Of a DNA stretch of 64,000 nt, positions 22,411-32,525 are shown in pieces. Source of the stretch: Escherichia coli (lineage in GTDB: Bacteria; Pseudomonadota; Gammaproteobacteria; Enterobacterales; Enterobacteriaceae); NCBI RefSeq assembly GCF_044324785.1, contig NZ_CP172127.1; one strand, given 5' to 3'. The notes below the pieces were generated by a model that was not told where the DNA came from, did no database searches, and saw nothing but the letters and a program-made list of their open reading frames with translations. Both the position numbers and the translations under genes were made by a program. How positions within the stretch are numbered: position 1 is the stretch's first letter; each line of letters opens with the position of its first letter.

Positions 22411-25400
22411 TTACTTTACCTCTTGAAATTCAAATGGGAATCCAGTGAAAGGACCTTTAGGCATAATATATCTTTGATATCCATAAAGCTCACCGAGCAC
22501 TTGTAGGCTTATAGGCGCATTTGTATTCATAGAGGGGTTGTTAAACCCGCACGCCTCAAAAATCATGTTCGTTCGGCTAAAACAATTATTTAAAACAGGA
22601 AGAGGCCCGAGGTTAATAGTTTTTAGTTTTTTATTAAGGTCTATTGCCTTATTCATCATACATTGTTCTTCTTCATCTGTTGTATCTATTATCCAAATCC
22701 AGGTATCTCTGCGGGGTTGCATCTTTTTAAAATAATCAGAGACAGAGGCTCCCATCTCATCCCCAGTTCCCGAACTCATTAATCCATATCGATTTGCCGC
22801 CGCAGCATGCCCAAAAGGATTATCAGGAACGGGGCCGTTACCTATTATCATAGTACTAAGCCCTAATGGATCAACGTGTTGCACTGGATTCAGCGGATAT
22901 TGGTACAGATTCCATCCCCCCTTCAGCCCAATCGGGTCCTGGATGATATACCGCCCCTGCAACGGATCGTAGTACCGGTGACGGTTATAATACAGCCCCG
23001 ACTCCTCATCGTGTTGCTGCCCTGGCAGACGGTACGGCTGGTGCAGGTGATGCGGTTTTTCCTCATTCAGCAGGTTTCCCCACTCATCATACTCCCCGCT
23101 CCACGCCGTATTGCCGTCTTCGCTGATGAGCGCCAGCGGCAGGCCCCGGTGGTCGCAGTGGTAAAGATGAACTTTTCGCGCCGGTGTGTATTCCGGCTCC
23201 ACCTGTCTGGCCAGTTGCTCTACCGTCAGCCCGCACTGCGCAAGCCACGCCCGGCTTTCACTGCTCACGCGGTCTGCCCGGATTTCCCCCTCCAGCCTGT
23301 CCAGCATCCTCACAAGTTCTGCCGGGAACACCACACCGTGTCCGTTCTCGCTCCCTTCCTGCTGGAGCTTCTCCGCCAGGCTCCGCCGCTGCGTTTTCTC
23401 CCGCTCGCCGTTGTCTGTTTCGATGCGGATGAGTGGTGTGAAGCTTCCCGGCTCGTATACCGTCTGGATACGTGTGCTGTCGGTCTGCACCGTCGTCAGG
23501 TGGTCGCCGTCCCAGCCGTACCACGTCACCTCCGGTTTACGCGACAGCGACATCCACCCCGTCAGGTCACGTACCCGCCGCCACACCCGTTTACCCGTCC
23601 GGCGGCCCAGCGGGTCGTAGAGGTAGCGGCTCTCCACCTGCGGCTCGCCATGCTGTATCCGCGTGTAGAACACCAGGCGGTGCTGGCTGTCGTAGTGGTA
23701 GTGGTGGGTCCGCTCGTCGTCCGTCCGTATCACACCCGCCGGGATGCGGTCCGTCTTCTCCGTCAGCCTGCCGTATTCATCGTGGCGGTAGACATAGTGC
23801 GCATCCTCCGCGATGCGGTTATCCGGCCACACTGTGAGTGTACTGTCCGGGTGCAGCTCCGGGTCCGGCAGCCGGTTGCCCGCCGGGTCCGTGGCATACG
23901 GGATGCGGATGTCCAGGTCCGGTGCGAGGGTGCGCACACTCTCCAGCCTGCCCGTGGCGCTGTAGCCGTATTCCCGCGTCTGTCGCGGGCCGCTGATGCG
24001 CACCAGGTCGCCGTTGTCATTCCACCCGTAGTCACGGTCATACACCAGGCTGTTCAGGTGCTGGCTCTGTAACTGGCCTGCGGGGGTGTATGTGCTGGTC
24101 AGTTCGTATGCGGCATTACTGCCTGCCATGCTGCCGAAGCTGCGCACCGTCTCCCGGTGCAGCCTGTCCCGCGTATACTCGACCCGCGGCGTCCCGCCCA
24201 GCTTCATGCCCGCCAGGTAACCGCTGCCATACGTCAGCCACTCCACCGGCGGCAGGCTGTCCGGCGTGATGCGGTTTGCCAGCCCCTGCTCGTTGTATGC
24301 GTGTTTCGTCTCATGCTGCCACAGCAGTTCCCCCGTCTCCGGGTTCTCCACCGTCTGGCGTTCGCCGGTCAGGCGGCCTTTATCGTCATAGCCGTAGTGG
24401 ACCGCCACACGGTGGCCTTCACTGATATGGCTGAGGGTGGTTAACCACCCGTGCTCATCATACTGCCACTGCTCTGCCGGGTCGCCGTTCACCGTCCGGT
24501 GCGTGATGCGGTCTGCTTCATCGTAGTACCAGAGGATGACAAGCCCCTCATCTTCACTCTGCGTGAGTTTTCCGGTCAGGTCATAATGATAACGTTGCGT
24601 CCGCCCGTCAAAGCCGCGCTGCTGTACCAGGCGGTCCAGCGCATCGTAGCTGAAGTCGCTGTGACTGCCGTTCTCGTTGGTCAGGCTGATGACACGTCCG
24701 GCAGCATCGTACTCCATACTGCGCGTCAGCCCGCCCTGCGTGGTGCTGACCGCCTTTCCCCACGCATCGTACTGTGTCTCGCTCCGGTTGCCGTCCGGGG
24801 TGATAACGGCAGTCAGGTCGCCTGCGGCGTTGTACTCATACTGCGTTTCACGGCCCTGTGCGTCTTTCACCGAGGTTAACCGGCCACGGTTGTCATAGCG
24901 GCGGTAACGGCTGATACCTTCCTCACGGTGGACCGCCGTCATCTGACCAAAGCGGTCGTATTCATAACGGGTCTGGTAGCCCGAGCAGTCGGTGAACGCC
25001 AGCAACTGCCCGTAGCGGCTCCAGGTCATCTGCCGGGTGCTGCCCGTCGCATCCGTTGTCGTCGCCGGTAATTCACTGTGCGGATTATCATAAGCATACC
25101 GGATGACGTCCCCACTGCGCGATGTCTCCGTTACCAGCCTGCCCGGTTCATCATATGCCCGGCGGCTCTCCAGCCCGTCCGGGGACACCACTGCCGTCAC
25201 CTGGTTCCCGTCGTTATAGTAAAATTTCGTCTCCCGCCCGTCCGGTGTGGTGATGTCCGTGATATCGCCTGACACCACATTCAGACCGTACTCTGTCCGC
25301 CGTCCCGCCGCGTCCGTCTGCGCCGTAAGCCTTCCTGCCGCGTCATACCCGCTGCGCGTGACGCTGCCGTCCGCCAGTTCTTTTTTCACCACCCGTTTCA

Positions 25401-26640
25401 GCCCGCCTTCACCTTCTGTATGCAGCACCTCACGCCGGTTCAGGCTGTCCGTGACGGTGATGCGGTCCTGCTCATACTGGTAGCGGTAACTCAGGCCTGC
25501 CGGGTTCAGCTGCTCCACCACCCGCCCCGCATCGTCGTAGCGGTAGCGCATCTCCGGCCTTCCCGCGTAACGGTGCGCCACCATCCGGCCCGGGTGCTGC
25601 GCGTCATACGTGAAAGCGCGCACCTGCGTATTGCTGCGGTCATATACCGCCAGCAGTTCACCGGCTTCCGTATACGTGTACCGCGCCAGTGGCGCACCGG
25701 GCAGATTCTCCGGGTATGCCGGGTCGTACATCAGCCACACCGCTGAAAGACGGATACCCCTGTCGGGGCCGTATTCCGTACCGGGCAGTGTGTCGGGGAA
25801 AGCTGAGTCTGAAAGAGGGCGGGGGGTGTCAGGGGAAAATAAGGAAGCGGTGTGCTGTTTACGGGCCTCTTCCGCCCGCTGCGCCTGCGTGGTCAGCACC
25901 AGACGGAACTGCCGCCCGGCACCGTCCGTCACGCCGGTGATTTCCCCGGCCAGGTCACCGGCGGCCTCACGCCGGTACGCCAGCGTCCGCCCGAAGCGGT
26001 CTGCCAGCCCGGTAAGCACCCGGTACGGCGGCAGCGGCGCTGGCAGTACGTCCTCAGCACCCGGCACCCGCTCTGACCACCCCAGTATCCACCACGGCCC
26101 CTGTGCGCTGTTGGTCGCCAGGTAAAGATGCGGGCTTAACCGGATATCCGGCGGCAGCGCCCCCCACAGCCGTGCCAGCGTGTGGCCGTCCGGCTGCGCT
26201 GCCTTACCACCGCGCACCAGCCACATTGACTCGCTGCGGCTGTACACCGCCTCACCCGGCAGCAGCGGCTCAAAGTGAATGCTCCGCCCGCCGTTGTCGT
26301 TGAGTATCAGTCCGTCATCACGTAGCTGTAAGCGGATATCAGAAGGCGCTTTCCAGCCGGGGCCGAAAACGCCCACCGGCGCAGGCGTCTTCGTCCGGTA
26401 GCTGCTGTAGGTGCGGGAGAGAATGAACGGCAGCGGGCCGGGCAGCGCAAGGTCCGTCTCGCCGGGCAGCACCTTCGCCCCCAGCAGCGGATTTACCGGG
26501 TTGCCCGAAGTCATCCCGCCCGGACACACCGAGCACGCCACGCCGGTGGGCGCGCCAATTCTTACACCTGCCGAACCCTGGACAATGGGACCGCCATACT
26601 GAGTCATATCTCCCTGACGCGCCGCTGGTTTTCCGCTCAT
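22411..26640 (-). CDS. PAAR-domain Rhs polymorphic toxin (T6SS effector) with AT-rich C-terminal tip of unknown family
   Basis: 1409-aa ORF. N-terminus [31 protein letters not shown] (PAAR-like); long YD-repeat core; the Rhs core ends at DPLGL and is followed by about 150 aa ([25 protein letters not shown]...EFQEVK) encoded by conspicuously AT-rich DNA. Confidence 0.88.
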
Positions 26641-26706: not shown

Positions 26707-28815
26707 TCAGTACTCTCTCATATCCGGCGTATCCTGCTTTTCATCAGGGGTCTTCGGTGGGGATTTCGAGGCTGCACAGTTCCAGTTAATCAACAGTGAG
26801 TCACCATTAACCTGCTCCTTACCCTGCAAATGAATTTTTGTGCCGTTGAGAAAAATTTGTCCGTCCTTAGTCAGCACCAGCCTTGCCTTACCACAGCAGA
26901 GTTCCAGATGCTCACCGGCGGAGTAAATCGCGGTCTGCCCGGTATCATCCTTTTTCGTTTTACCAACGGTGAAGGTAACGTTATTTCCGACTTTGACGTC
27001 ATAACCCAGCCCGACCCTCAACGATTTATGCAAACCGATCTGCGAGGACTGCATCAGGGCCACCGAGGTGTTCATAATGCCACCTACCGTCGTCTGATAC
27101 GCCACGCCCACAGTCAGCGCACGCACAAGTCCAATCGTTTCCACCTGAACAGAGCCCACTTTAATGATCTGGTTACTGCCCACCGTCTCTATCTGGTTAA
27201 CACCCACCGTCTGTATCTGATTGTTGGTAACCGCAATCATCTGATTGTTGCCAATGGTCTCAGCATGGTTGTTTATCACATCCGTGGTGCGGTTATTCAG
27301 CACCTCGGTGTTCATATTCTTCTGCGCGTGGATGTAGACCTGTTCTTTCCCTGTCGCATCGTCAAACTTCAGTTCATTAAACCCGCTGCCCTTATAGGTT
27401 TTCGAACGAATGGTCATCTGCGTCTTTGTTCCCGGCAGGCTGCCGGGGGTGCGGTTTTCCTGGTGGTAGGTACGCCCCATAATAATCGGCTGGTCCGGAT
27501 CGCCGTTGAGGAAGTCCACAATGACTTCCTGACCCACACGCGGTATCGCCAGGTTGCCAAAGCCGGTGCCTGCCCACGCCTGTGCCACACGGATCCAGCA
27601 TGAACTGTCCTGGTTTGACGGGTTATAGCGGTCCCAGTTAAATTTCACCCGCACGCGGCCATGTTCATCACAGAAGATTTCTTCTCCTGCCGGTCCCGTC
27701 ACGACGGCGCTCTGCGGGCCGTCCACCAGCGGTTTCAGCAACGGCTGTGGCCGCCATGTCCGGTCTGCCGGTATTACCGCAAAGTGGTTATTCAGCGTGG
27801 TACCTGAACCCCTGCGTCCCGGCACCGCCTGCGGCTGCTCGCCGTGCAGTTCACTTGCCACCACCTGCCATTCCCGGTTCAGGCTCGCCTGCGGATGCCC
27901 CGTCAGCGCAATTCGCCGTCCCGGCCATATCTCCGGCGAACGGCTTGTTCCGCGCGCCACTTCTGCGTTGTTTCGCCAGCCATCCATCTGCCAGCAGGCA
28001 AAGTTCTGCCCGTGGGCACCCTTGAAACGTCCGGGGTAGTCATACACTTCATACTGTGTGCGCTGGTAATCCTGGTGCTGGCCTTCCTGATCAAAACGCC
28101 CTGCCCAGCCGGGTCGTTTAAAGGTGTAGTCTTTGGTCACCACGGAAGATGGGCGGATTTGTGCGCTGTAGCGGAACTGGCTGATGCAGAGGGTGCTCAC
28201 CTCGGTACGGGTGTTCGGATTCCAGGGGATCTCAAAGGACTCCGGCAGATAACGCACGGTGTCGCACAGGACCAGGCTCTGGTCGGTACTTTTTTGCGCG
28301 TGCTCCTCATAAAAGAAGATGCCTTCCTCCGCCGCCATCCGGCACAGGAAATCGTAATCAGTTTCGCCGTACTGGACACAAAACTCACGGGAAGGATGCG
28401 GCTCGCTGAACAGCGGACTCCACTCGGTCACCCCGTTTTCTTTCAGGATCGTCGCGAGGATGCTTTCGATGTCCTCATTCTGGAAGATACGGAAGTTCTG
28501 GCGCAGCCCTGTGCGCCACAGCGGTGGGCACACCTTCATGCTGTACAGCATCTGGTTTTTGTCGTTCTCCCCCAGTTCAAACCAGGTCACCACACCTTTC
28601 ACCCGGCGCTGTACGTCATCGCCCTGCCATACCGTCAGGTAGGCCATTTTGTCCAGCACCTGCGCAAATTCAAGGGAGAGAAACTGCTGGCTGACCAGAG
28701 AGAGATCGAGGGAAAAGAGCGAAGAGAGTGACTGGTTCAGATGAAAGGAGACCACCGCAAACGTGTCCGGTGGCAGGCCGTCCACTTCCAGCGTGAAACG
28801 TAATCCGGTTGACAT
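26707..28815 (-). CDS. vgrG: T6SS spike protein VgrG (TssI)
   Basis: 702-aa ORF MSTGLRFTLEVDGLPPDTFAVVSFHLNQSLSSLFSLDLSLVS... with gp27/gp5-like regions and a C-terminal repetitive beta segment. Confidence 0.9.
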   Translation of the reverse strand: MSTGLRFTLEVDGLPPDTFAVVSFHLNQSLSSLFSLDLSLVSQQFLSLEFAQVLDKMAYLTVWQGDDVQRRVKGVVTWFELGENDKNQMLYSMKVCPPLWRTGLRQNFRIFQNEDIESILATILKENGVTEWSPLFSEPHPSREFCVQYGETDYDFLCRMAAEEGIFFYEEHAQKSTDQSLVLCDTVRYLPESFEIPWNPNTRTEVSTLCISQFRYSAQIRPSSVVTKDYTFKRPGWAGRFDQEGQHQDYQRTQYEVYDYPGRFKGAHGQNFACWQMDGWRNNAEVARGTSRSPEIWPGRRIALTGHPQASLNREWQVVASELHGEQPQAVPGRRGSGTTLNNHFAVIPADRTWRPQPLLKPLVDGPQSAVVTGPAGEEIFCDEHGRVRVKFNWDRYNPSNQDSSCWIRVAQAWAGTGFGNLAIPRVGQEVIVDFLNGDPDQPIIMGRTYHQENRTPGSLPGTKTQMTIRSKTYKGSGFNELKFDDATGKEQVYIHAQKNMNTEVLNNRTTDVINNHAETIGNNQMIAVTNNQIQTVGVNQIETVGSNQIIKVGSVQVETIGLVRALTVGVAYQTTVGGIMNTSVALMQSSQIGLHKSLRVGLGYDVKVGNNVTFTVGKTKKDDTGQTAIYSAGEHLELCCGKARLVLTKDGQIFLNGTKIHLQGKEQVNGDSLLINWNCAASKSPPKTPDEKQDTPDMREY

Positions 28816-29024: not shown

Positions 29025-29543
29025 TTATGCTTCCAGCGGTGCGCGCCAGTCGTCGGCACCAGAGGTGCCAGACTTGACGTGTTCCCACTCTATTTTGCGG
29101 TAGGCCAGTGAAACTTCGAGCAACTGGGTGAACTCGCGTTTCGCCGGATCCTGGCAATGCGGCATATGCAGTTTCATATCGACAATCGTCGAATCGGTCA
29201 GGCGGGTGGTGAAATAATGCTCCTGTTTGCCTTCCACAGAGGTACGCCACCAGTGAAGTTCAGTGGTTGGCAGCATTTCGCCGGAGGCCAGTGCGTTGTA
29301 CATCAGCGGAACAGCTTTGTTCAGCGCCACGGTAAAAATGAACGGCTTGTGAGCACGCTGACCCGCAGGCTGGCCGGACTGAGGATCTGTCGGGACAGTA
29401 ACGTTATGCAGGAATTCCTGCACCAGCATCTCGTCTTCGTGCCCCTGCACATAGATGTTGCCGACAGAATCAGCGGTAAATGCACCTGCAGTAATATTTC
29501 CCTGGGTCTGACCAGTGATGGAGATATAACACGGTGTTGGCAT
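29025..29543 (-). CDS. hcp: T6SS tube protein Hcp (TssD)
   Basis: 172-aa ORF MPTPCYISITGQTQGNITAGAFTADSVGNIYVQGHEDEMLVQEF..., Hcp1 family. Confidence 0.9.
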   Translation of the reverse strand: MPTPCYISITGQTQGNITAGAFTADSVGNIYVQGHEDEMLVQEFLHNVTVPTDPQSGQPAGQRAHKPFIFTVALNKAVPLMYNALASGEMLPTTELHWWRTSVEGKQEHYFTTRLTDSTIVDMKLHMPHCQDPAKREFTQLLEVSLAYRKIEWEHVKSGTSGADDWRAPLEA

Positions 29544-30239
29544 TTGTAAACTCCTTGTTAACGTGGTTAATTACTACTTACAATGACCTGCCGTTAATCC
29601 CAGACAGGCAGATGCAGCTCACTTCACGGAACCGCATCATTTTTCAGTATTTTTTACATACAAACCGAGCTAGAATTTACGGTTGTCGTAAAAACTATTT
29701 TTAAAATCATTAAATCTCTTATTCAGCAATAACTTAATAATATATATCTGGATAACCATACCCAACTGTTCAAAGTCCGTATTGCCTCCATAAAATGGCC
29801 AAAACTGAATCATGAATAAATATTGTATTTATCCTTTATGAATTATCATTTTGATAATTTTTGAGATATTCCTTAAAAATACCCACTTAATCAATCACAA
29901 AACAAATATATAAACAAGCAATCATCAGATTAGCTTATGTTTAATGAAATTATTGTATAATTCAATAAGTTATATAAAAACTCTATATTTAAATTATTGC
30001 CATAATACACCTGACGCGAATTGCAAAGGTTCACACAATCTATTTAACGCTTGCAGAATACCCCTCTTTACGATCGATAAAAAGTCCTTTTCTTATTTAT
30101 TTTGAAGCGTAGAATGCGGGGTGATGAAGGAGTGGTGATTTTATTTTCACCGCCATTAGGGCGGCATTGCCGATATTTTTTTGCGGTACAAATATGCCGT
30201 GTTCATGGCCTGTACGAGATAACATGACGGATCACTTTT
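29544..30239. promoter_or_regulatory. AT-rich divergent control region between hcp (minus) and tssB (plus)
   Basis: About 700 bp non-coding and very AT-rich; contains a Fur-box-like motif aattatcattttgataatt (29841-29859) and a GATC site near 30072. Confidence 0.45.
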
Positions 30240-30740
30240 ATGAGCAAAAAATTTGAAGGCAGCGTCGCGCCTCGCGAGCGTATAAATATATCCTATGTCC
30301 CGAAGACAGACGGCCAGACGGCTGAAGTGGAGCTTCCGCTTAACATGCTCGTTGTCGGCGATACCGGAAATACGCAGGAGACATCCCCACTGGATGAACG
30401 TCAGGCAGTTTCCGTTAACAAGCACAATTTCGGTGCGGTGATGGCTGAAGCAGCCATTGGCCTCAATTTTACCGTCCCCGCCACGCTGAAGGGAAGCACA
30501 ACGGACGATGAACTGAATGTGGCGCTGAATATCAAATCACTGGATGATTTTTCACCAGATAGCGTGGCCCGGCAGGTTCCGGAAGTGAATAAATTGCTGG
30601 AACTGCGTGAAGCACTGACTGCACTGAAGGGGCCGATGGGTAACCTTCCGGCATTCCGTACCCAGCTCCAGGCATTGCTGGAAAATGAAGAGTCCCGCGA
30701 GCAGTTGCTCAAAGAAATCGGCCGGGTGAGCAATAAATAA
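30240..30740 (+). CDS. tssB: T6SS contractile sheath small subunit TssB (VipA/ImpB)
   Basis: 166-aa ORF MSKKFEGSVAPRERINISYVPKTDGQTAEVELPLNMLVVGD... Confidence 0.9.
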   Translation: MSKKFEGSVAPRERINISYVPKTDGQTAEVELPLNMLVVGDTGNTQETSPLDERQAVSVNKHNFGAVMAEAAIGLNFTVPATLKGSTTDDELNVALNIKSLDDFSPDSVARQVPEVNKLLELREALTALKGPMGNLPAFRTQLQALLENEESREQLLKEIGRVSNK

Positions 30741-30774
30741 CCACCACTATTTCATTAAACAGGGTTATCCAGGC

Positions 30775-30999
30775 ATGACGGCACACAAAAATATCTCCGG
30801 GACATACCACCTCTCTGTTGCAGACATTCTGCAGGTGGTTTACCAGGTATGTTTCAGCCCGTCCGTTGAAATCAACCAGGATGGTGTGGCTGCGCTGATT
30901 ACAACACTGGATCGCCGTATCAGTGATCTATTGGATGAGATTATCCATTTTTGTGAGTTTCAGCAGAGCGCGTCGCACTGGCAGCGCGTACTTCACTGA
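30775..30999 (+). CDS. Small ORF resembling the TssC N-terminal region (possible gene remnant or accessory mini-protein)
   Basis: 74-aa ORF; ...NQDGVAALITTLDRRISDLLDEIIHFCEFQQSASHWQRV aligns with TssC residues ...NKLAVDSMIADIDERISRQMDVIIHAPAFQQVESFWRSL from the adjacent tssC. Confidence 0.4.
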   Translation: MTAHKNISGTYHLSVADILQVVYQVCFSPSVEINQDGVAALITTLDRRISDLLDEIIHFCEFQQSASHWQRVLH

Positions 31000-31049
31000 T
31001 GGCGAAAAGCCGGTTTCAGACACACAGCTAAAACAGAAGGATTTTCAGT

Positions 31050-32525
31050 ATGTCTTTACAGGAAGAGGAACTCGTTTCCAGTCATGCCGGGCAGCCTGAG
31101 CAGGCATCGTCGCTGCTTGATCAAATCATGGCACAGACCCGTATTCAGCCCGGTTCGGAAGGTTATGACGTTGCCCGCCAGGGTGTGACAGCCTTTATTG
31201 CCAGCATCCTGCAATCCACTGCATCTGCCGAACCGGTCAATAAACTGGCCGTGGACAGCATGATTGCAGATATTGATGAACGCATCAGCCGCCAGATGGA
31301 TGTCATCATCCATGCGCCTGCCTTTCAGCAGGTCGAGTCGTTCTGGCGCTCACTGAAAACCATGGTGGATCGCGTTGATTTCCGTGAAAACATCAAGGTC
31401 AACGTGCTTCATGTCACCAAGCAGGAACTTCTGGAAGACTTTGAGTTTGCGCCAGAAATTATTCAGTCCGGATTTTATAAGCACGTTTATTCGTCCGGTT
31501 TCGGACAGTTTGGCGGTGAACCCATCGCTGCCGTGCTGGGCGCTTATGAGTTCAAAAATACCGCGCCTGACATGAAACTACTGCAATACGTCAGTGCCGT
31601 GGGCGCAATGGCGCACGCACCGTTCCTGTCCTCCGTTTCCCCGGAGTTTATGGGGCTGAACTCGTGGACCGAACTGCCTAATATCAAAGAGCTTTATGCC
31701 ATCTTTGAAGGTCCGGCCTACACCAAATGGCGCGCTCTGCGTGACTCGGAAGATTCGCGCTATTTAGGGCTTACGGCACCCCGCTTCCTGCTTCGCCAGC
31801 CTTATTCACCAACAGATAACCCTGTTAAGAACTTTAACTATCACGAAGATGTCAGCCGGAACCACGAAGATTATCTGTGGGGTAATACGGCCTGGATGCT
31901 GGCATGCAATATCGCAGACAGTTTTGCCAAATACCGTTGGTGTCCAAACATCATCGGCCCGCAAAGCGGCGGCGCAGTGAAAGATCTGCCGGTGCATCTG
32001 TTCGAAACGATGGGTCAGATTCAGGCCAAAATCCCAACCGAGGTGCTGGTCACCGATCGCCGCGAATTTGAACTGGCTGAAGAGGGTTTTATCACCCTTA
32101 CCATGCGTAAAGACTCTGATAATGCAGCCTTTTTCTCTGCAAACTCGGTACAAAAACCGAAGCACTTTCCGGGTAAAGACGCAGAAACCAACTATAAGTT
32201 GGGTACGCAGCTTCCTTATCTCTTCATCATTAATCGGTTAGCGCACTACATCAAGGTGTTGCAGCGTGAACAACTGGGGTCATGGAAAGAAAGGAGCGAC
32301 TTAGAGAGGGAGCTTAATACCTGGATCCGTCAGTATGTTGCCGACCAGGAAAACCCGCCTGCGGACGTGCGCAGCCGCAAGCCTCTGCGTGCTGCCAGAG
32401 TTGAGGTTATGGATGTGGAGGGCGAACCCGGCTGGTACCAGGTCGCGCTGAGCGTGCGGCCCCATTTTAAATTTATGGGGGCAAACTTTGAGCTTTCCCT
32501 GGTTGGCCGGTTAGACAGGGAGTAA
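31050..32525 (+). CDS. tssC: T6SS contractile sheath large subunit TssC (VipB/ImpC)
   Basis: 491-aa ORF with agaagga RBS; MSLQEEELVSSHAGQPEQASSLLDQIMAQTRIQPGSEGYDVARQG... Confidence 0.92.
   Translation: MSLQEEELVSSHAGQPEQASSLLDQIMAQTRIQPGSEGYDVARQGVTAFIASILQSTASAEPVNKLAVDSMIADIDERISRQMDVIIHAPAFQQVESFWRSLKTMVDRVDFRENIKVNVLHVTKQELLEDFEFAPEIIQSGFYKHVYSSGFGQFGGEPIAAVLGAYEFKNTAPDMKLLQYVSAVGAMAHAPFLSSVSPEFMGLNSWTELPNIKELYAIFEGPAYTKWRALRDSEDSRYLGLTAPRFLLRQPYSPTDNPVKNFNYHEDVSRNHEDYLWGNTAWMLACNIADSFAKYRWCPNIIGPQSGGAVKDLPVHLFETMGQIQAKIPTEVLVTDRREFELAEEGFITLTMRKDSDNAAFFSANSVQKPKHFPGKDAETNYKLGTQLPYLFIINRLAHYIKVLQREQLGSWKERSDLERELNTWIRQYVADQENPPADVRSRKPLRAARVEVMDVEGEPGWYQVALSVRPHFKFMGANFELSLVGRLDRE

Follow-up and report, generated by a model that had tools for sequence, protein, structure and literature searches.

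Small open reading frame between tssB and tssC of the Escherichia coli T6SS-2-type cluster is probably a relic of an old partial tssC duplication

The helix through which the sheath subunit VipB recruits ClpV lies in its disordered residues 1–60, residue 61 being the first ordered residue of the contracted sheath; in EAEC, the ClpV-binding helix corresponds to residues 23–35 of TssC1 and 15–29 of TssC2 (PMC5048182). The T6SS-2 of EHEC is the same island as the one analysed here (PMC7216683). Its tssB and tssC genes were placed in separate operons by an earlier study and in a polycistronic tssB operon by the own data of a report that also describes repression of tssC by CsrA and an AGGA motif 8 nt before the tssC ATG (PMC13141884). 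In E. coli O157:H7 Sakai, ECs0232 is annotated between impB/tssB (ECs0233) and impC/tssC (ECs0231). Public annotation gives neither an origin nor a function for ECs0232 and its RefSeq 'hypothetical protein' WP_000123970.1, and a literature search by locus tag found no mention of ECs0232, Z0263 or WP_000123970. The mini-ORF described here is the same gene call at the identical position and encodes the identical protein. We consider it probable that this mini-ORF is a remnant, tssC', left when the 5' part of tssC was duplicated long ago inside a T6SS-2-type cluster. Homology to TssC, phylogenetic distribution, near-neutral substitution and independent disruptions of the frame carry this reading.

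The window, the whole stretch of 64,000 nt that was analysed, is a segment of an E. coli chromosome with a T6SS-2-type island. Genes for Rhs (22411–26640), vgrG (26707–28815) and hcp (29025–29543) lie on the minus strand and are followed by a 696-bp, AT-rich, divergent promoter region between hcp and tssB (29544–30239). From tssB onwards, the plus strand carries tssB, tssC, tssE, tssF and further genes. The sheath small subunit gene tssB (30240–30740, 166 aa) was assigned from the ORF list, the RefSeq annotation of a 99.5%-identical locus and PF05591 in orthologues. The sheath large subunit gene tssC (31050–32525, 491 aa) is intact; its product matches the V. cholerae VipB structures with an E value of 1e-246, and chain 3j9g_B of a VipB structure begins at residue 64 of the window TssC. 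The plus-strand spacer between the two genes measures 309 bp (30741–31049). Within it, the coordinates given for a 74-aa ORF in the initial annotation were confirmed: the mini-ORF runs over 74 codons on the plus strand (30775–30999), from an ATG at 30775 to a TGA at 30997–30999. The last 50 nt of the spacer (31000–31049) form the tssC leader, with AAGGA at 31037–31041. Downstream of the T6SS island, two tRNA-Asp(GTC) genes are located ~8 kb apart on the minus strand (53106–53182 and 61329–61405), the first of which is probably aspV, the insertion site of the island.

The proposed similarity of the mini-ORF to the adjacent TssC withstood comparison with shuffled controls. BLASTP aligned mini-ORF residues 15–72 with TssC residues 50–102 (20 of 58 identities, E 2e-8), and the Smith–Waterman score of 76 was reached by none of 2000 shuffles (27.9 ± 4.3, z = 11.3). 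With 12 mini-ORF homologues against 12 TssC N-termini, hhalign returned a probability of 97.3% and an E value of 2.7e-11, the aligned span being mini-ORF residues 31–72 and TssC residues 61–102; identity to the adjacent TssC is 38% across 42 residues. On the DNA level, single-sequence alignment was marginal (score 27, shuffle maximum 28), while an nhmmer profile of nine spacers matched tssC nt 191–307 with an E value of 6e-11. Similarity is thus above chance for both protein and DNA, as expected of a TssC-derived sequence, and the demonstrable homology is confined to ~42 residues, i.e. codons 31–72 of the mini-ORF (30865–30990, plus strand) and their ancient template, codons 61–102 of tssC (31230–31355, plus strand). 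Two sub-threshold fragment matches fall at the very start of the VipB domain: Pfam VipB PF05943 is matched at model positions 2–33 of 301 only (E 0.003) and NCBIfam TIGR03355 (TssC) at positions 43–82 of 473 (19.1 bits, E 5e-4). The mini-ORF is not a functional member of the TssC/VipB family, as it lacks full-length PF05943 and PF18945 and stays, with 17–19 bits, below the curated TIGR03355 cut-off of 271.5 bits. In comparison with TssC/VipB it keeps the positions N-x4-D-x2-I-x3-D-x-(R/K)-I, II/ILH, FQQ and W, and the shared D-RIS, IIH, FQQ and S-W positions that had been singled out initially are present in the alignment. It comprises, however, only ~42 of ~490 residues; a C-terminal domain and a recognisable ClpV-binding helix are missing, and purifying selection is absent.

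The alignment had initially been drawn over TssC residues ~45–105. Homology to residues 61–102 stands, but the first 30 residues of the mini-ORF have no significant similarity to TssC 1–60. When the N-terminal 26–30 residues of six mini-ORFs were compared with TssC 1–60 of three lineages, 133 of 3000 shuffles reached the score of the best case (uncorrected). Resemblances of MSLRK/MSLQE and ARTD/ARTE to the TssC N-terminus, seen in some copies from Citrobacter and its allies, were dismissed as not significant. Weak nhmmer cross-hits to tssC codons 17–26 were likewise set aside, because they stem from a resemblance within TssC itself (LLDEIM to QMDEI(I/L)H) and not from positional homology; LLDQIM/LLDEIM and QMDVIIH/QMDEILH occupy TssC codons 21–27 and 82–88 (31110–31130 and 31293–31313). 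Since homology begins at TssC residue 61, the copied piece is the start of the sheath core and not the ClpV-binding helix. The expectation that the copied region is one engaged by partner proteins is therefore imprecise, the helix bound by ClpV lying in residues 1–60 (PMC5048182). Mimicry of this helix is not apparent, the mini-ORF having no significant similarity to TssC residues ~15–35; a structural model also predicts a short N-terminal helix in the mini-ORF (residues 15–26), but the homologous part begins only downstream of the ClpV-recruiting region.

About 2240 of 5426 complete E. coli genomes (about 40%) contain the mini-ORF, and the 1.2 kb around it are 95–100% identical in 2222 of the 5426. 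Two E. coli allele classes were distinguished, with 1965 genomes at at least 99% identity and 288 at ~92%. The frame is annotated in 59 of 60 sampled E. coli genomes, still so because the alleles are young. By protein search, the 74-codon frame occurs only in Escherichia (E. coli, E. albertii, E. marmotae). Counterparts of 70 codons with ~35–45% identity were recovered from Atlantibacter, Citrobacter and Salmonella, and from Yokenella in the set of orthologous clusters; this second group is termed the Citrobacter-type clade here. Searches returned only mini-ORFs of these two clades and no homologue outside the Enterobacteriaceae. Scanning one genome per species with TssC gave 68 loci. Those with a spacer of 290–309 bp and a mini-ORF homologue all have a TssC that shares at least 87% identity with that of the window (Escherichia, C. 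youngae, Atlantibacter subterranea, Yokenella regensburgei). In the clusters next in similarity (Rahnella, Buttiauxella, Yersinia nurmii, Trabulsiella and others; TssC identity 74–78%), tssB and tssC are ~30 bp apart and a mini-ORF is lacking, and across ~56 related clusters the ~300-bp spacer is limited to the mini-ORF-bearing ones. We therefore trace the insertion back to one old event that took place before the two cluster lineages separated. What had been called unusual inside a sheath operon is indeed so with respect to this ~300-bp spacer, but the ORF itself is common in E. coli and already annotated.

Several deviating loci were encountered in these searches. One MAG labelled Citrobacter sp. 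(DXKH01000078.1) has a cluster 99% identical to that of E. coli, mini-ORF included, and is probably mislabelled or chimeric. Seven contigs encode a 100-aa fusion of mini-ORF residues 1–26 with the last ~74 residues of TssC (P0033), corresponding to window positions 30775–30852 joined to about 32300–32525 by an internal deletion that took most of tssC. Island deletion variants with break points inside the spacer were found on NZ_CP074042.1 (H20) and NZ_AP027800.1 (H80). Strain PI6 (NZ_CP074042.1) retains only window positions 30766–30854, adjoining tagH, and strain 2017.10.01CC only nt 160–225 of the frame, adjoining an RHS gene.

The source of the copy was sought among TssC sequences. A mini-ORF profile scored 37.5–40.7 bits on the seven TssCs that adjoin a mini-ORF and at most 35 bits on all others, nhmmer scored highest on the cluster's own tssC, and none of 1.84 billion representatives contained a closer TssC donor at E ≤ 1e-3. 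This ranking and the absence of a closer TssC make a duplication inside the cluster more likely than acquisition from another T6SS. The initial annotation had also offered recombination between T6SS loci, by which the mini-ORF would be the scar of an illegitimate or homologous exchange with another cluster that left a tssC 5' end behind. E. coli and its relatives often have several T6SS clusters, the present cluster is visibly mosaic, and at 38% identity over 42 residues the donor is not identifiable by identity alone. We nevertheless regard such a scar as improbable, given that the TssCs of mini-ORF-bearing lineages rank first and that no closer TssC was recovered, although the age of the copy makes this less than certain; an identity this low would be expected had the copy been decaying neutrally since before the two clades separated.

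Duplication inside the cluster, the preferred reading, would have involved the tssB–tssC junction together with some 105 codons from the start of tssC. It would have occurred in the cluster ancestral to both the Escherichia T6SS-2 cluster and its orthologue in Citrobacter, Salmonella, Atlantibacter and Yokenella. The upstream copy would subsequently have lost ~90 nt and changed frame at ...TCACTGA..., whereby a stop codon was created, and only the stretch equivalent to TssC 61–102 would have remained recognisable. A tandem duplication across the junction predicts tssB-3'-like sequence before tssC. A resemblance to the tssB 3' end and spacer is indeed present in the 50 nt that precede tssC of the Citrobacter-type clade (2–88 of 2000 shuffles reach the score), but Escherichia lacks this signal, and for this reason we only infer the tandem mechanism. 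Collinear nhmmer matches for the duplicated unit had E values of 3.6–4.8. The borders of the duplication are not statistically established, as the N-terminal 30 codons match nothing, and those given above are presumptive.

Substitution patterns within both clades are those of a sequence evolving at or near the neutral rate. In Escherichia, dN/dS of the mini-ORF is 0.9–2.3, as opposed to 0.11 for tssB and 0.03–0.08 for tssC (comparisons with the low-quality contig L079 left out); in the Citrobacter-type clade the mini-ORF has a dN/dS of ~0.5, and over both clades tssC spans 0.01–0.08. Between the window and E. albertii, the mini-ORF has an all-site distance of 0.122 and the 4-fold sites of tssB and tssC one of 0.107–0.113. 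Between the two E. coli allele classes, 15 of 74 mini-ORF residues are different, compared to 2 of 166 in TssB and 6 of 491 in TssC, and the nucleotide differences in the mini-ORF are distributed 6/10/2 over the three codon positions. Nucleotide diversity (pi) of the mini-ORF in the Citrobacter-type clade is 0.100, 0.102 and 0.105 at codon positions 1, 2 and 3, with position-3 values of 0.10–0.12 in the adjoining 300 nt of tssB and tssC. Neither clade has codon periodicity or an excess of position-3 changes, and neither half of the mini-ORF a protein-type substitution pattern. Binomial tests rejected omega ≤ 0.3 (p = 0.009 and 8e-4 in Escherichia, 0.03 in the Citrobacter-type clade) and omega ≤ 0.1 (p < 1e-7). 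Rate and pattern are thus neutral, as in a pseudogene, and the purifying selection on the encoded protein that would mark a small gene was not found.

Between the clades, the mini-ORF distance is 0.63 and that of local 4-fold sites 0.73–0.79. Third positions differ at 38 of 70 sites versus 50 of 140 first and second positions (Fisher p = 0.012); together with the dN/dS of ~0.5 in the Citrobacter-type clade, this excess hints at some constraint, weak or past. Both clades, ~0.63 substitutions per site apart, keep the frame open between the same start and stop positions; simulation with substitutions alone gave this a chance of ~0.10 per lineage at the observed divergence. Strong long-term constraint, suggested by a between-clade Nei–Gojobori dN/dS of 0.15–0.4, was rejected as an artefact of saturation (dS ~2) and of mosaic genealogy on the basis of the local 4-fold and codon-position benchmarks. 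An apparently slow spacer in the Citrobacter-type clade (0.10, versus 0.25–0.28 at gene-wide 4-fold sites and 0.16–0.41 in the hcp–tssB intergenic region) vanished once the adjoining 300 nt served as benchmark. Third-position diversity along tssB and tssC varies in blocks between 0.10 and 0.26 in this clade (tssB–tssC region of loci L004, L005, L006, L071, L072, L074 and L082), which indicates recombination within the cluster, and gene-wide neutral benchmarks were misleading. Separately, tssC on contig L079 (GCA_008916885.1, SKED01035276.1) has a dN/dS of ~0.5 to the other Escherichia copies and is either a decaying tssC or the product of a low-quality assembly.

The mini-ORF is broken in three of six species-level representatives, each time by different mutations. 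C. youngae ATCC 29220 has a TTA>TGA change at codon 21 and has lost the stop codon, Yokenella regensburgei has a +1 frameshift insertion and a CAG>TAG change, and in the E. albertii type strain NBRC 107761 the start ATG is gone and indels of -1, +4 and -18 are present. All three loci encode full-length Hcp and TssB, and those of C. youngae and Yokenella also full-length TssC, TssE and TssF; in E. albertii the contig breaks off at TssC residue 344. Independent disabling mutations next to undisrupted neighbours, a hallmark of pseudogenes, are hence present, and a check of related strains that the initial annotation had called for yielded broken frames in otherwise undisrupted clusters, an outcome which it had itself named, together with a missing phenotype, as refuting. 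Like truncated pseudogene copies in general, the mini-ORF lies beside its parent gene and combines a neutral pattern with lineage-specific stops and frameshifts. It differs from them in having stayed open for unusually long, in two clades, hence its being called a protein by gene callers. These results agree with a remnant of partial tssC duplication, which had been among the initial proposals.

The frame had also been proposed to encode a small mimic of the TssC N-terminal region. Such a micro-protein would copy TssC 61–102, comprising the N-terminal linker and first helix, and would compete with TssC for sheath contacts, thereby modulating or capping sheath assembly. Twelve residues are conserved between the two mini-ORF clades (N34, L41, I42, D46, R48, I49, L52, E55, I56, Q63, Q64, W69), largely at positions that are also conserved in TssC. 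AlphaFold2 predicts two helices for the mini-ORF with good confidence (pLDDT 82.8), and Citrobacter-type mini-ORFs are preceded by a good GGGAG Shine–Dalgarno sequence (-8 to -12 kcal/mol); the between-clade position-3 excess points in the same direction. We nonetheless hold a functional micro-protein, and with it any effect on sheath assembly, to be very unlikely. The mini-ORF has no codon periodicity within either clade, evolves at the local neutral rate, is incompatible with strong constraint (omega ≤ 0.1) and was inactivated three times independently. The Shine–Dalgarno sequence in E. coli is weak (-3.8 kcal/mol, versus -5.5 kcal/mol for tssC), the ClpV-binding helix lies outside the homologous part, the locus tags are not mentioned in the literature searched, and a Foldseek search of the PDB with the predicted model gave no match. 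The model and the empty Foldseek search are in themselves uninformative about mimicry. We read the open frame, the position-3 excess, the dN/dS of ~0.5 and the good Shine–Dalgarno sequence as traces of weak or past constraint and not of present function; the peptide, if made at all, would be functionless in E. coli today.

The spacer could also matter as RNA or DNA. Its diversity drops towards the 3' end, from a pi of 0.13 to 0.057, and in the Citrobacter-type clade the 48–50 nt before tssC have a pi of 0.03; over the last 16 nt the two clades do not differ. Clear constraint within the spacer is limited to the ~50-nt leader with the ribosome-binding region of tssC, and a tssC leader with AAGGA is also present in outgroups without the spacer. 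Scanning positions 29400–31300 revealed neither a sigma-70-like promoter nor an intrinsic terminator in the spacer; all six sigma-70-like matches fall into the hcp–tssB intergenic region (29544–30239), in which H-NS binding is located according to the literature. Between E. coli and E. albertii, this intergenic region evolves faster (distance 0.172) than 4-fold sites (0.11). A structured RNA or known RNA family was not apparent in the spacer: Rfam had no match at E ≤ 1, and RNAalifold gave a weak consensus fold of -24.4 kcal/mol for 318 columns with a covariation term of -2.9 kcal/mol, all double changes being single clade splits.

A role of the spacer that depends neither on the peptide nor on its sequence appears unlikely, if less so than a working micro-protein. 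Selection would then keep an open frame or the 3' part of the spacer and leave the amino-acid sequence unconstrained. The spacer could serve as a long tssC leader that houses an internal promoter, a partial terminator or the region bound by CsrA or the ribosome; alternatively, ribosomes translating an open frame, whatever its sequence, could protect tssC from Rho-dependent polarity. In keeping with this, the frame is open in two clades despite a drifting protein sequence, the 3' end is strongly conserved, and the conflicting EHEC operon reports as well as the CsrA effect and its AGGA motif concern this very junction (PMC13141884). However, the three lineages with a broken frame keep undisrupted neighbours, so that an open frame is not required; the spacer lacks the promoter, terminator and RNA-family matches searched for, its consensus fold is weak, and the conserved leader can be accounted for simply as the translation-initiation region of tssC, also present in outgroups without the spacer. 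The unusual spacer may all the same be relevant to regulation.

In the window tssC is intact, but in O157:H7 (strains Z1832 and Sakai) a CAG>TAG change at codon 464 removes the last 28 residues of TssC (…VALSVRPHFKFMGANFELSLVGRLDRE). This nonsense codon, observed in locus L002 (3851–5323) and in Sakai ECs0231 (L084), corresponds to window positions 32439–32441. The two EHEC T6SS papers searched both discuss the split tssA, and no mention of the stop at tssC codon 464 was found in them.

Taken together, a long-lived and still open tssC fragment that is annotated as a hypothetical protein is ordinary biology, and it is most likely a leftover and not a working gene. The 'hypothetical protein' ECs0232, carried by ~40% of complete E. 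coli genomes including O157:H7, can accordingly be renamed a tssC-derived remnant instead of being counted as an unknown T6SS component. The T6SS-2 tssB–tssC junction is atypical (~300 versus ~30 bp), which bears on the question of tssB and tssC co-transcription in EHEC and on the post-transcriptional control of tssC. It seems improbable to us that the mini-ORF encodes, where intact, a fast-evolving TssC-copying micro-protein that tunes the sheath, or that the spacer was co-opted as a regulatory leader uncoupling tssC from tssB. If true, the former would be one of few instances in which a piece of a structural protein has been turned into a modulator of a contractile machine, and the latter would explain both the disagreement over the operon and the effect of CsrA on tssC in EHEC.
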